Source of the DNA: a virus
Strand: one strand, 5' to 3'
Virus genome (UHGV): UHGV-0168042
Length of the DNA: 64,000 nucleotides
The position numbers were made by a program, and so were the translations under genes. The notes under the pieces are model-generated. The model had not been told where the DNA came from and searched no databases. It worked only from the letters and a program-made list of their open reading frames with translations. Below are positions 13,383-54,653 of the stretch, in pieces (position 1 is the first letter of the stretch; the number at the start of each line of letters is the position of its first letter).

Positions 13383-13694
13383 ATTGGCAGCCTCCTTTTG
13401 CTAATTTAAGGAGCTACCGCGTGAGGTTCCAATCTCAATGGCGGTAGCACTGACTGGGTTGGAACTACCGGCGCAAAAGGGAACCGGCCTGCCTTTCGGC
13501 AGCCCAGCCAGCACTACCATTGATCTCTGAGCTAAACGCTACGTATGGCTGTGCGATGGCATGACACAAGAAAAGACGCTTTCGGCGTCTGTGTCGCCTT
13601 TTGCATTATCCGGGGTTCCAATCCCGGCACCCGTTTTTCTAAGGTGCCGTAGAAATATACCCCACGATAATGCCAGGGCGCAACAGTCAGTATT

Positions 13695-37770: not shown

Positions 37771-38163
37771 CTACCAGCGAGACAAACGAACAACATGTTT
37801 CACTTTTGCGATCCACTGTCCGCGATAACTATTGATTACGGCCTGTGCCAGCTTCAAATTGGCTTCAAAATCAGCCTTACTACCATCAGACTCCACCAGC
37901 ATTCCTCCATCTATTTCTGGTAAACATAGATAATCCTGCTCAACCTGCAGCGGCATTGATGGCTCTCTGAATGGCGTTACTTGCTCTGCTTTCCAGCGAA
38001 ATCTAACCCTCATCCCCCTGGTGGTCATTACTAGATAGCCTGTTATAGTGCTTTTATGGCCCACATCAGTACGCGTGGCATTGCATGACACGATCTTACA
38101 GTTAGCGATAGACCACTCCATATTGGTGGCCTGTTGAGTGCTTAATTTGGTAGTCCCGTACAT
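37771..38163 (-). CDS. Hypothetical protein
   Basis: 130-aa ORF. Confidence 0.4.
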   Translation of the reverse strand: MYGTTKLSTQQATNMEWSIANCKIVSCNATRTDVGHKSTITGYLVMTTRGMRVRFRWKAEQVTPFREPSMPLQVEQDYLCLPEIDGGMLVESDGSKADFEANLKLAQAVINSYRGQWIAKVKHVVRLSRW

Positions 38164-38738
38164 CAGAAAGCCTCCCAGTCAGTCGCGATAATATCCACAC
38201 CAGTTGCAAACCAGTCTGTCTGCGCCTGTAAATCACCATTCATCATTACCAGGCGAGGCATCACCATCACATCGCACCCTTCCACAATATCGAATGCCTC
38301 TTCCGGCAAGAATTCGAAGAGCTTTTCTTTGCTGCCAATGCTGCCACGGAACATCGATATATAGCTCCCTTTAGGCCATGATGTCCGCCGGGCATCAAGC
38401 CCTTTCATCATCCAGTAAAAAGCCGAGGAAAAAGGGATATTCTTTTTGCCAATGATTACATTATTCGCTTCTGTGTACTTCAGGAACTTAACTAACCTTA
38501 CCATTGACTCGGATAACGCAACGTATGGCTCATGATTGATTGCTGACACGCTTACACCGTGCAAATCCACGCTTACCACTGTCATATCACCGCTCTGTGC
38601 GGTTTCGATATTGACGCCTTTGCGAACTAATGAGGCGTAAAGTTCCTCTCGCTTTTTGGTCCAGCGTTCCCGCTTCCCTATGAAGTCACTCAAAATGAGA
38701 TCTTCTTCTGCATATGCGTTATCGTTCGCCATTAACAT
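38163..38738 (-). CDS. Hypothetical protein
   Basis: 191-aa ORF overlapping the downstream gene by 1 nt. Confidence 0.4.
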   Translation of the reverse strand: MLMANDNAYAEEDLILSDFIGKRERWTKKREELYASLVRKGVNIETAQSGDMTVVSVDLHGVSVSAINHEPYVALSESMVRLVKFLKYTEANNVIIGKKNIPFSSAFYWMMKGLDARRTSWPKGSYISMFRGSIGSKEKLFEFLPEEAFDIVEGCDVMVMPRLVMMNGDLQAQTDWFATGVDIIATDWEAF

Positions 38739-39420: not shown

Positions 39421-40248
39421 TTATTTCACCGGAACAAACGGAACAGCGGTATTACTGGTCATATACTGCGGTAGCGTTCCGTTCCATTTGTTGATCGCTT
39501 CCAACTCCATAACGCCGGGGTTCTGGCGCAGAGCCTCACCGCGTAAACGAATGGCATCAGCTTCAGCCTGGGCTTTTGTGCGAATGGCATCGGCCTGTCC
39601 GGCAGCTTCTGCGCGCAGCATGTTGGCTTCTGCTTCGCGTTGCTTGACTTCCTGCTCGCGTTGCAGAGTTTTCTGGTTCGCCGTGACTTTGGCATTAATG
39701 CTGTCGATAACGGTTGGCGGGTACTCCGGCTTGCCCACATATGAGAGGCTCATTACCTGAATACCGATGGGCGTCATTTCTTCCTGGATGTCTTTAAGAG
39801 CTGCATCCAGTAGTTCAGACTTGCCACCGTCGATAAATTTGTCGGTGGTCATTTTGCTGGCCAGTCGGTTAAGTGCGTCGGCAATCTTCTGGCGCAGGTC
39901 GGTGTCGGTAATGTCATCCACGCCTTTGCGGTAGGTCTGAAATACAGTTGTGACTTTTGCCGGATCAACCTTGTAAGCTACACCAATGTGGTAACCAATT
40001 GTTGTCCCGTCGCTCATTTGGAAGCTGAACGGATCATCATAGGTCTTCATTTGCTTAAAGGTCGGGAAGATATAAACTTCTGTGTTCCAGCCTGTCCAGT
40101 AGCGACCAACGCCAACTACTTCGCCGACACCTTTATCATCCCCCAGCTTATTTACTTTGATCCCTACATTGCCTGGTTCTACCCGGTCGCATCCGGTCAG
40201 ACATAAAGAACCAAAAATAATCGCTGCACTAATCAACGTTTTTTTCAT
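39421..40248 (-). CDS. SPFH/band-7 domain lipoprotein
   Basis: 275 aa; lipobox LTGC after signal peptide; Ala/Glu/Gln-rich C-terminal region typical of SPFH proteins. Confidence 0.6.
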   Translation of the reverse strand: MKKTLISAAIIFGSLCLTGCDRVEPGNVGIKVNKLGDDKGVGEVVGVGRYWTGWNTEVYIFPTFKQMKTYDDPFSFQMSDGTTIGYHIGVAYKVDPAKVTTVFQTYRKGVDDITDTDLRQKIADALNRLASKMTTDKFIDGGKSELLDAALKDIQEEMTPIGIQVMSLSYVGKPEYPPTVIDSINAKVTANQKTLQREQEVKQREAEANMLRAEAAGQADAIRTKAQAEADAIRLRGEALRQNPGVMELEAINKWNGTLPQYMTSNTAVPFVPVK

Positions 40249-40465: not shown

Positions 40466-40783
40466 CCTCTCACTCCATTATTTAACGAATAAAAAAGCTG
40501 CGGTGCCTGGTGCCTCCAGGTGACGTTAACCAGTTAACAATTAACGCCGGGATGTTTGACTTAACCACTAAGGAGGATTGTTTTAACTGTTCCGCGTGCG
40601 CAATGGGACGGTTTTCAAGACTGCTTGAGCACCATGCTCCCTACTCTCCCGTTATTGTGGCGACCGGTGCTGATCTCCGGCTTGCGGTTATTTCAGACTC
40701 TCACGGGCGTTTAATTGCCCCGCCGAACAGCTCTTTTCCGCAATAGCTGCAATGTCTTTCGCGCATCAGCCTGCGCATTCACC

Positions 40784-40875
40784 ACAATGTTGAGAACACT
40801 GGTTGTCACGCTGCAACGCAACATTTATTCATAGATTGGGATATGACCCCGTTACGCCAGTGTTCTCAACGTTGT
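40784..40875. repeat. Near-perfect 19-bp inverted repeat flanking a 54-bp segment
   Basis: ACAATGTTGAGAACACTGG ... CCAGTGTTCTCAACGTTGT (18/19); intervening segment contains TTGTCA and TAGATT promoter-like hexamers. Confidence 0.4.
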
Positions 40876-41022
40876 AGTGCCGGTTACGGTTCCGGCCAGG
40901 CCTCTTCCTCAACGGGGTGTTCTCCATACGGACTACCGTTTATTGGTCGTTCCTGCGGTTTATGTTGTGAAGCCAGATGCTTATCTTCTGGTTGCTTCAA
41001 AGAGCTGCACTTCATCACAACG

Positions 41023-41096
41023 GTAAGGGTACTTCGTAGGGATTCGAACCCTCTGCCAAGCACGGCGATCTCCGACGTCGCAAAATACCCTTACCT
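41023..41096 (-). other. tRNA-like fragment (T-arm GGTTCGAATCC plus acceptor-like stem); probable tRNA remnant
   Basis: Contains GAGGGTTCGAATCCCTA and terminal GGTAAGG/CCTTACC pairing but cannot be folded into a canonical cloverleaf. Confidence 0.3.
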
Positions 41097-41103
41097 GTTG
41101 TGT

Positions 41104-41179
41104 TGGTGCCGGTTAACGGACTCGAACCGCTGACATCCTGCTTACAAGGCAGGCGCTCTACCAACTGAGCTAAACCGGC
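41104..41179 (-). tRNA. tRNA-Thr (anticodon UGU)
   Basis: GCCGGTTTAGCTCAGTTGGTAGAGCGCCTGCCTTGTAAGCAGGATGTCAGCGGTTCGAGTCCGTTAACCGGCACCA; canonical stems. Confidence 0.8.
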
Positions 41180-41181
41180 AT

Positions 41182-41258
41182 TGGCGATGGTGGGTGGATT
41201 CGAACCACCGACCGACAGCTTAGAAGGCTGCTGCTCTATCCTACTGAGCTACACCATC
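41182..41258 (-). tRNA. tRNA-Arg (anticodon UCU, AGA/AGG-reading)
   Basis: GATGGTGTAGCTCAGTAGGATAGAGCAGCAGCCTTCTAAGCTGTCGGTCGGTGGTTCGAATCCACCCACCATCGCCA; 2 nt from tRNA-Thr. Confidence 0.8.
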
Positions 41259-41710
41259 ACTTGCCGGGTACGTCTCCGGCGAGGGCTTCCACCTCCGTAT
41301 GCTTTTCGGCGCACCGCGCCCTGGCTGCAATTCGGTAACAGGGGATGCACAACCCTGGCTTCCAGCGTGATTAGCGCCTTCAGCATGACGGGATATACCC
41401 GTAGTAGGATGTTATCCCAGAAAGCCATTAATCAATGGCTGTTACGCGGGAGGGACGTAACAGGTAAGGGCGCTGACCAGAAAGACCTGACCCTTCTCAT
41501 TCATCTGGTTAATCACACCAGCGCCCTTGCCTGTTATGCCTCCCCGTTCCCTAATACACAGACGGGGACACTCTGCGGTCGATTTTTTGACGGGGGACGA
41601 CTCATACCCCGTGGCGTCTGGCTTCTTAGGCCGCTACCATCATCAGATCATCGTTTGCATTTACTTTAATGGTCAGTTTATAAACCGCCGCAAAGTCGCT
41701 AACCATGACG

Positions 41711-41742
41711 AAAACCCTAAAAAAGCCCACCCGAAGATGGGC
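41711..41742 (-). terminator. Rho-independent terminator on minus strand
   Basis: Minus strand: GCCCATCTTCGGGTGGGC followed by TTTTTTAGGGTTTT. Confidence 0.5.
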
Positions 41743-41761
41743 AAATACGCTACATCTCACA

Positions 41762-41840
41762 CAAGAAAGAAGCCGACTGCCTGAGCTGGATTCACTTTCA
41801 AATGCCCGCTGAAAGGGATCACAAGTCGGCTTCTTTCTTG
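41762..41840. repeat. Perfect 16-bp inverted repeat (long stem-loop) with about 45-nt loop
   Basis: AAGAAAGAAGCCGACT ... AGTCGGCTTCTTTCTT; lies just upstream (minus strand) of the terminator in an ORF-poor region. Confidence 0.4.
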
Positions 41841-42463
41841 ATGCGGCACTCTCTCCGCCCGTCACCGCTCTGTCTCGGTTGTCGCGTTTGCCACGCCAGC
41901 CGTAACGAGGTTTAAAGTCTTTGCACGTTTCCATCACTCGACTGCCGTCTGTGGCTGTTCGTTGCAGCGGGGGTGCCTCCCCCTGGGGATATCCCCGGCC
42001 TTACCCCATTCTTTCAAGACACAATGCAAGGCCACATCCGCATAGGTGCATTACCGCAACATTAAGGAGACTCAGGGCAAAAGGTAACCGCCACAAAAAT
42101 CCCTATGCCTCCTTAATGTTGAAGATGTGCATTGATGATTAGATGCAGCATGTACCGTTACTCTCTGCCGGACCATCATCAATAAACACCTTAAAAAGGC
42201 CTTCCGTGGCTCAACATGTATTGTCGTTTACTCCGCAAAGTGCTCTCTCTGAAACCACTTTCCGCACTAAACCTGCTGAACTTTGGCCTGCACGGTGCCA
42301 AAGCGTGCTCTTGCGTTACTATACTTTTCTAACACTTTAATTTGTTAAATGCTGGTGGGCGAACAATAACCAATAAGTGACTATCAAGCCCAGCAAGCGA
42401 AACGTGGGTACCGCCCACCAGCAAGGAAAATTCTATGTTAAGTTACCTTCACAATCAATACAT

Positions 42464-54323: not shown

Positions 54324-54653
54324 AGTTACGGCCTCACTAACAGGTTTAACAACCTGCTACCCGCTGTCAAACAGGTGGCAGGACGTGACAGGGTTGACAG
54401 ACTGGCGTTAGTGAAACCAGCAGGCCGAAGCCTCCCCATCACGCCCCACCATAATTCGGGCGTAACGCGGTTTACGGACACAAAAATACCGCAATATCGG
54501 AAATCTGCGGTTGTCCGCACTAACATTCAGGCTGTCAAACCTGGTCGCAGAATTTGCTACGACGGCATGAATATAAGCCTGAAAACATGGAAGATCAACT
54601 AAAAATTTCAGCAATGGATGACTTCAGTCGATGATGCAGATCATACATTCCGA

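Follow-up and report, generated by a model that had tools for sequence, protein, structure and literature searches.

Background

Duplexes of 23 bp are classical substrates of RNase III, and stalks cut by this enzyme are known from the rRNA operon, the N-leader and sib of lambda, the early sites of T7 and the maturation of DicF. Another well-described device is the thrS operator, which places a mimic of an anticodon arm in a leader. Three consecutive G-C pairs are the hallmark of initiator tRNAs, and we know of no precedent for a bacterial RNA that mimics the initiator tRNA.

The closest described RNA is sRNA-17 of E. coli K1 RS218, which is encoded in a prophage of the mEp460 type, is 193 nt long, was mapped by RACE and was seen on Northern blots (PMC7719688). 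Its authors assume an upstream promoter, although their RACE does not tell primary from processed 5' ends, and 'degenerative' copies of sRNA-17 in P1-like plasmids are given in the supplement of the same study (PMC7719688).

Here, we analyze a 64-kb stretch of DNA (the window), which is a P1-like phage-plasmid and contains a conspicuous inverted repeat. We conclude that this repeat (40780-40879) forms the stem of a structured RNA that is unannotated and conserved among P1-like and lambda-like phages, and that the repeat is not a DNA switch.

Results

The inverted repeat and its fold

The initial annotation described 19-bp inverted repeats around a 54-bp segment. Reading of the sequence confirmed the complementarity of the 19-nt arms at 18 of 19 positions (40784-40802, ACAATGTTGAGAACACTGG, against 40857-40875, CCAGTGTTCTCAACGTTGT) as well as the 54-nt spacer, and the repeat finder extended the arms to 23 nt each (40780-40802 and 40857-40879), of which 21 positions (91%) are complementary. 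The fold of the minus-strand RNA has an energy of -47.4 kcal/mol (z = -6.45), and none of 200 shuffles was as stable; for the plus-strand RNA, the corresponding values are -41.0 kcal/mol and z = -4.63. The hairpin was retained when the repeat was folded in a 471-nt context. A search for inverted repeats (17 nt or longer, within 150 nt) found only six in the entire window, four of which are located in one untranslated stretch of 1.4 kb that also contains the 40780-40879 repeat. Given fold energies below those of the shuffles and the rarity of such repeats, the inverted repeat is more than a chance occurrence. The near-perfect 23-bp stem, with its fold energy of -47.4 kcal/mol, also has the approximately two helical turns of dsRNA that an RNase III site requires.

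The minus-strand RNA is ~ 100 nt long, and its 23-bp stem, P1, closes a three-way junction with two branches, P2 and P3. The 5' arm of stem P1 (40857-40879, minus strand, CACUACAACGUUGAGAACACUGG) is supported by the repeat finder, RNA folds, the covariance-model alignment and the covariation of its columns; it pairs with the 3' arm (40780-40802, minus strand, CCAGUGUUCUCAACAUUGUGGUG), and in the window the 23 pairs include one mismatch and one wobble. The P2 helix CGUA/UAUG (40830-40856, minus strand) encloses the linkers AC and AAUC and an anticodon-arm-like hairpin, GGG-GUCAUAU-CCC (40850-40838, minus strand), in which 'CAU' occupies 40845-40843; the whole branch reads CGUA-AC-GGGGUCAUAUCCC-AAUC-UAUG. 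The remaining part (40803-40829, minus strand, AAUAAAUGUUGCGUUGCAGCGUGACAA) is folded into the variable hairpin P3 and the junction. The sequence and length of P3 vary among relatives, while the hairpin is kept, with compensatory changes in all four pairs. The inner-helix pattern that forms part of our definition of the family, a P2 capped by GGG-NUCAUAN-CCC and flanked by (G/A)AC and AAUC, is present in the window.

Genomic context in P1-like phage-plasmids

BLAST showed that 821 bases around the repeat match phage P1, D6, P7, RCS47 and hundreds of P1-like plasmids. The neighboring tRNA genes and ORFs are all on the minus strand, as is the sense of the hairpin RNA. Read on this strand, the region begins with a promoter-like site (42458-42430), followed by ~ 1.2 kb without credible ORFs, in which three long hairpins (41449-41545, 41762-41840 and 42057-42121) and a terminator are found. 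Next come tRNA-Arg(UCU) and tRNA-Thr(UGU) (41104-41258, minus strand; ARAGORN and Rfam), then a long-stem module with a T-arm (41016-41100), the 40780-40879 hairpin, an sRNA-17-like stretch and a truncated tRNA-Ser. The latter is followed by ORFs for a small protein and an SPFH protein, by a CAU-anticodon tRNA and by a Tad2-like gene. The tRNA-Ser(UGA) is represented by its 5' part (40596-40649, minus strand), as determined by alignment with pE2863-2 and the FWSEC0003 plasmid, in which it is annotated as tRNA-OTHER or tRNA-Ser; relative to these two plasmids, the gene is shortened by a 166-bp deletion.

The homologous stretch of phage P1 belongs, according to the P1 annotation, to the C1-controlled ban operon and follows tRNA-Asn and tRNA-Thr. 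These data show that the hairpin of the window lies in an early transcription unit which is untranslated and rich in tRNA genes and which corresponds to the ban operon of P1. Our search of the literature on the P1 transcriptome and the ban operon yielded nothing useful, and a search for the literal sequence of the element gave no match.

Several further features of the region were recorded. The tRNA-Arg(UCU) (41182-41258, minus strand) sits in the slot of the P1 tRNA-Asn, and sister plasmids have an extra tRNA-Tyr between tRNA-Arg and tRNA-Thr, making the tRNA set of the locus variable. The 166-bp deletion mentioned above also took out the 3' arm of another module. The hairpin at 41762-41840 and the terminator at 41725-41742 match the 'dicF-like region' of phage P1 by position. 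The Tad2-like (anti-Thoeris) gene and the SPFH/Band 7 gene (38163-38738 and 39421-40248, minus strand) lie downstream in the same orientation, which fits an accessory or anti-defense region. Elsewhere, the window encodes C4 antisense RNAs at two separate loci (13437-13647 and 54371-54576, minus strand), one with isrK and one with the a1b1 target motif.

Covariation and the strand of the RNA

The search for relatives of the element started from single arms, which gave partial BLAST matches to unrelated lambdoid phages and led to mEp460, phiNP and EPP-1; in these phages, the same inner motif lies inside long stems whose arms differ in sequence. Scanning of viral contigs with a pattern then gave 98 unique contexts. 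A covariance model, R1, was built from a seed of 12 lambdoid-prophage copies only, with the window sequence excluded. In the 64-kb window, R1 found a single match, at 40777-40879 on the minus strand, over the full model length (36.8 bits, E 7.3e-8), and on the plus strand of the window there was no match even at E values up to 10.

These data raise an important question: do the arms vary in a manner that preserves pairing in RNA, or is their complementarity a property of the DNA? We used a segment-anchored alignment of 54 unique full elements, which is independent of R1. In this alignment, 96% of stem P1 pairs were canonical, compared with 73% after column shuffling and 37-60% in shifted registers, and compensatory variants were present in 19 of 20 columns. 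In P2, all pairs (100%) were canonical, each column showed 3-4 pair types, and compensatory variants were present in all five columns. The columns of stem P1 contained 194 G.U pairs and 9 A.C pairs; such a bias indicates an RNA read from the minus strand and argues against both a DNA-level repeat and the opposite strand.

The same picture of covariation was provided by a model-based alignment (A5) of 23 distinct non-seed sequences, which were fitted to the R1 structure, a procedure that favors pairing: 93.1% of the cells were paired, compared with 64.5% in shuffles (none of 500 reached the observed value) and 39-43% with slid partners. Changes on both sides were found in 30 of 33 pairs, including all 21 modeled pairs of stem P1, and the three GGG/CCC pairs were invariant. 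The segment-anchored and model-based alignments replaced a MAFFT alignment of divergent copies (A2), in which the 3' arms were misaligned, and a model alignment of all loci (A4) was left out of the counts as it was contaminated by reverse-strand matches of the palindromic stem.

Thus, the 'large RNA hairpin' considered in the initial annotation is borne out as a minus-strand RNA structure with compensatory changes, a bias of G.U over A.C and a conserved family behind it. The element is a member of a widespread and apparently undescribed family of structured phage RNAs.

Searches among known RNA families

Rfam 15, applied at gathering and at permissive thresholds, returned no family at the window site, only sub-threshold look-alikes of miRNA hairpins, and there was no Rfam match in the homologous leaders of mEp460, phiNP and EPP-1. 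YrlA, C4, isrK and DicF-type sRNAs were excluded, as none of their Rfam covariance models matched at the site. The element is also not a tRNA gene: ARAGORN and Rfam RF00005 call only three true tRNAs. The put RNA of HK022 was rejected after putL and putR had been read from the HK022 genome, since they have no sequence or architecture in common with the element, and R1 found nothing in the HK022 loci. Finally, a Nus-factor boxA or nut site was considered and rejected. The GCUCUUUA core is not a conserved single-stranded segment; the 3' arm is paired and covaries with the 5' arm, and it contains UGCUCU in some copies, GUGUUCUU in the commonest copy and GCCCUU or GCUCAG in others.

Distribution of the element

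In lambdoid prophages, the element is part of a constant arrangement: it comes after an intrinsic terminator, and between it and the start codon of yfdP, the first early-left gene of these prophages, are a GGAGAAAC that is conserved and a small hairpin. A lambdoid copy adjoins yfdP in 2493 of 5426 complete E. coli genomes. In K-12, the CPS-53 prophage has yfdP but has lost the element, and K-12 datasets are therefore uninformative here. Phage P1 itself has two copies. Full-length R1 matches occur in ~ 20 enterobacterial genera, including Escherichia, Shigella, Citrobacter, Enterobacter, Kosakonia, Leclercia, Mixta, Erwinia, Pantoea and Yersinia. Outside Enterobacterales, the genome-wide pattern scan gave approximately the number of matches expected by chance, and nearly all of them failed R1. 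Two exceptions were recorded: a 34-bit match in an Acidobacteriaceae MAG (L162 2550-2622, minus strand), which may be due to chance or be a distant relative, and a partial match in L197.

Exchangeable inserts between conserved arms

The inserts were surveyed by a scan for the 3' flank GTTGTGGTGAATGC, which is conserved. Many unrelated inserts of ~ 30-130 nt, some of which carry one or two T-loop hairpins, were found between one and the same pair of arms (CACAAC(A)GGUAAGAGCAUU ... AAUGCUCUUUCCGUUGUGGUGAAUGC; CACAAC...GUUGUGGUGAAUGC). Conserved arms around differing inserts indicate that the stem acts like a scaffold whose cargo can be exchanged. A strict anchored test for stems upstream of the 3' flank, which misses stems with a bulged A, was positive in 24 of 115 contexts and in none of the controls; a second test based on duplex energy had an uninformative control.

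In the window, at least three such modules are present (41545-41449, 41100-41016 and 40879-40780). The second of them, the long-stem T-arm module (41016-41100, minus strand), has the structure CACAAC-A-GGUAAGGGUA...UACCCUUACC-GUUGUGA and a perfect T-arm, AGGGUUCGAAUCCCU. It folds with -40.8 kcal/mol (z = -5.44), is 100% conserved in phage P1 and received no tRNA call from ARAGORN or Rfam. Its ends, CACAAC...GUUGUG, are the same as those of the 40780-40879 hairpin.

Related variants were also observed. Several hairpins of the untranslated leader have ends of the type CAAC...GUUG(C/U)GGU(G/A)AAUGC in common with the 40780-40879 hairpin. In phiNP and EPP-1 (L005 2396-2522 and L006 2530-2650, both minus strand), a stem of this kind holds a small hairpin flanked by a pair of T-loop hairpins, GGUUCGAUUCC and GUCCGUUCAAUUCGGAC, and this structure, a tRNA-like four-way junction, has no Rfam match. 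At the usual lambdoid site of the CAU arm, between the terminator and GGAG, locus L119 (547-635, minus strand) has the same stem with a wholly different insert.

Similarity of the P2 tip to the initiator tRNA

In 45 of the 54 unique copies of the anchored alignment, the P2 cap is GGGCUCAUAACCC (GGGCTCATAACCC), which is identical over 13 nt to positions 29-41 of E. coli tRNA-fMet (metZ reads ...tcgggctcataacccga...) and includes the three consecutive G-C pairs. The first relatives were collected with a pattern forcing GGG.TCATA.CCC, so that the invariance of CAU is partly a matter of ascertainment; copies recovered via the 3' flank alone (GGGCCCAUAACCC and GGGACUCAUAACCC) retain CAUA. By comparison of sequences, the predicted tip of P2 is a copy of the anticodon arm of the initiator, tRNA-fMet: three G-C pairs close a loop of 7 nt, NUCAUAN.

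In the window and in phage P1, the cap is GGGGUCAUAUCCC, which keeps the three G-C pairs, U33, CAU and A37. Loop positions 32 and 38 (loop GUCAUAU in the window) differ from those of tRNA-fMet, and the C28-G42 pair of tRNA-fMet is absent from the window hairpin; mimicry in the window is therefore only partial. A search for cis targets complementary to the 7-nt loop found nothing recurrent within +/-1.5 kb at all loci.

Link to sRNA-17

The primers published for sRNA-17 (PMC7719688) place this RNA on the strand that matches that of the element. In mEp460-type prophages, the 5' end of sRNA-17 (CGUUGUGGUGAAUGC...) falls within the long homologous stem, in its 3' arm, and the 3' end of sRNA-17 lies at the terminator that precedes the three-way-junction element. 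The window contains a homologue of the 5' two-thirds of sRNA-17 (40650-40789, minus strand, GUGGUGAAUGCGCAGGCUGAUGCGC...), identified by alignment A6 and BLAST, with 97.3% identity to mEp460 over 146 nt. This copy comprises the first ~ 140 nt; it starts at 40789, in the 3' arm of the hairpin, and is followed by the tRNA-Ser remnant and not by a terminator. The last 10 nt of the 3' arm of stem P1 (40789-40780) thus correspond to the mapped 5' end of sRNA-17. The promoter scan found no sense-strand promoter in the window upstream of the sRNA-17-like 5' end.

Discussion

A proposed processing stalk with a tRNA-like cargo

Taken together, a 23-bp duplex, an RNA end mapped in the homologous duplex and the lack of a promoter upstream of that end in the window make it most likely that the stem is a processing stalk. 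According to this model, stem P1 would be a stalk in a polycistronic noncoding precursor and would most likely be cut by RNase III. Such a cut would free a tRNA-mimic cargo of ~ 55-70 nt and also give the sRNA-17-like RNA downstream its 5' end; in P1-like plasmids, the 3' end of this RNA would be set by RNase P at the following tRNA. More speculatively, the cargo, whether freed or embedded, could engage something that reads the anticodon arm of the initiator; candidates are the 30S P site together with IF3, MetRS and a tRNA-fMet-cleaving toxin of the VapC type. The conserved three-way junction is more than a simple RNase III site needs, and the role that we assign to the cargo is a guess. A processing stalk combined with a tRNA mimic is the best-supported reading of the data, and we give it about an even chance of being correct.

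Alternative explanations

Could the repeat act at the level of DNA or be a by-product of other sequences? The initial annotation proposed a small invertible promoter element, in which the 54-bp spacer flips between repeats of 19-23 bp and carries a promoter, and inverted repeats flanking a short segment with hexamers loosely like -35 and -10 boxes agree with it. The two hexamers are indeed present (TTGTCA at 40803-40808 and TAGATT at 40832-40837), but they are 23 nt apart, a gap too long for a sigma-70 promoter, and the promoter scan found no promoter in the segment. The two hexamers are simply complementary to conserved features of the RNA, TAGATT to the AAUCUA linker and TTGTCA to the 3' strand of P3. 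The annotation was right that no recombinase gene is adjacent: none was found within ~ 2.5 kb, and the flanks encode SPFH, Tad2-like and coiled-coil proteins and hypothetical proteins. Among 583 plasmid records, the native orientation aligns with at least 95% identity in 569, and in 538 records the match covers at least 80% of the query, whereas a construct with the 54-nt segment inverted never aligned in full length above ~ 89% identity; only one orientation is thus present, and the G.U bias indicates pairing in RNA. The invertible-promoter proposal retains next to no probability, and we regard it as settled that the repeat is not a phase-variable promoter. A boundary of DNA modules, with arms kept as short homologies for cassette exchange between phages and an incidental RNA fold, would account for the homology to unrelated lambdoid phages that begins or ends exactly at the arms, for a hybrid copy that arose by recombination of two elements (L082) and for the same arms around many different inserts; since it leaves the compensatory changes in the arms, the 194:9 ratio of G.U to A.C and the covarying P2 and P3 unexplained, we consider it highly improbable. 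The opposite strand of the homologous stretch is annotated in phage P1 as plp, 'putative lipoprotein', and the repeat might be an accident within this plus-strand coding sequence or, in a region rich in tRNA-like pieces, part of a decayed tRNA pseudogene. The plp frame is open in the window, but its TTG start in P1 is replaced by CTT, the Cys/Ser/Gly-rich product has no Pfam match, the frame runs antisense through tRNA-Thr and the T-arm module, and PGAP leaves it unannotated in most plasmids. A pseudogene is contradicted by the absence of ARAGORN and Rfam tRNA calls at the element, and compensatory pairs would not be kept in it. The probability of either origin is accordingly minimal. The P1 genes plp and upl (window 40756-41133, plus strand; L003 2301-2870), which are antisense to the noncoding RNA array and tRNA-Thr, are probably mis-annotations.

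Other explanations accept the RNA but assign it a different function. The junction could stay in a long transcript as a cis-acting leader that controls yfdP in lambdoid prophages or downstream RNAs and genes in P1-like plasmids. Its initiator-like anticodon arm might sit in the P site of the ribosome or bind MetRS or an initiation factor, or the junction might modulate termination or read-through. The thrS operator is a precedent, and the constant lambdoid position, always directly after the intrinsic terminator and before GGAGAAAC, the small hairpin and the yfdP start codon, suits such a role; in P1-like plasmids, however, the element is followed by noncoding RNA and tRNA sequence and not by an ORF. 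Moreover, no conserved site complementary to the loop was found near start codons, the boxA-like UGCUCU is not conserved (the commonest copy has GUGUUCUU, which covaries with the 5' arm), and there is no similarity to HK022 putL/putR. We therefore consider a cis leader possible but rather unlikely. Alternatively, the mimic of the initiator arm, either excised or embedded, might be an anti-defense decoy that soaks up a nuclease of the host or a plasmid that cuts tRNA-fMet in its anticodon loop (VapC/MvpT type) or another tRNA-directed immunity factor, acting alongside the tRNA genes of the phage itself. Phage tRNAs are reported to counter tRNA-cleaving defenses, which counts for this possibility, as do the cap, which in most copies matches the anticodon arm of tRNA-fMet exactly over 13 nt, the location in an accessory region that is variable and contains phage tRNA genes as well as a Tad2-like anti-Thoeris gene, and the T-loop hairpins in other cargos. 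This support is purely circumstantial, the window copy deviates at loop positions 32 and 38, and a decoy function seems quite improbable; it is, however, compatible with the processing model and not exclusive of it.

Implications

The processing-stalk model can be extended, with due caution, to the entire set of modules. Enterobacterial temperate phages would then possess a cassette system of noncoding RNAs, in which a conserved stem of ~ 22 bp is cut by RNase III, the cargos are exchangeable and the mimic of the initiator arm acts in trans. Within this system, the mimic would be a decoy for tRNA-fMet-cleaving toxins or tRNA-directed immunity, or it would bind the 30S P site and IF3 and bias initiation during phage development. 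We consider this extended reading, as a whole, unlikely.

If our interpretation is true, phage P1 and, via lambdoid prophages, about half of the complete E. coli genomes carry an unannotated RNA motif supported by covariation. A motif that copies the arm of the initiator tRNA would sit in a modular array of processed noncoding RNAs and represent a new RNA family to curate, and the annotation of plp and upl in P1 would appear to be a misreading of the antisense RNA array. The virulence-linked sRNA-17 would gain a structural context. Moreover, a testable link would be established between phage RNAs and either the machinery that recognizes the initiator tRNA or the defense systems that target tRNAs.

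Comparison with known systems

With the DNA inversion switches fimS, hin and P1 cin/cix, the window repeat has in common only short inverted repeats around a short segment; unlike them, it has no nearby recombinase gene and no promoter inside, and it occurs in a single orientation in 583 plasmids. The put RNA of HK022, a temperate coliphage without N, is likewise a structured early-leader RNA of ~ 70-100 nt, but it consists of two adjacent stem-loops without a closing stem or CAU hairpin, and the element is located downstream of the terminator and not upstream. In the thrS operator, as in the element, a hairpin copies the anticodon arm of a specific tRNA, and YrlA, a tRNA-like Y RNA (RF02553), is likewise closed by a long stem that bears tRNA-like pieces at the tip; the sister modules carry T-loops. 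The element differs from both in that it has no Rfam match to YrlA and no synthetase or Rsr gene nearby, and that the tRNA mimicked is the initiator.

RNase III stalks are a further parallel. In these stalks and in the element, a duplex of at least 20 bp is formed from the flanks of a structured RNA inside a polycistronic transcript, and in the homologue of the element an RNA 5' end maps within the duplex. Distinctive features of the element are a stem sequence conserved across modules and a cargo that is a tRNA-like junction and not rRNA or mRNA, and its cleavage is a prediction. sRNA-17, which was described without reference to the stem family or the anticodon-arm motif (PMC7719688), is the RNA downstream of the stem and not the hairpin or the three-way junction; it shares with the element the type of locus and the strand, and its mapped 5' end lies in the homologous 3' arm.
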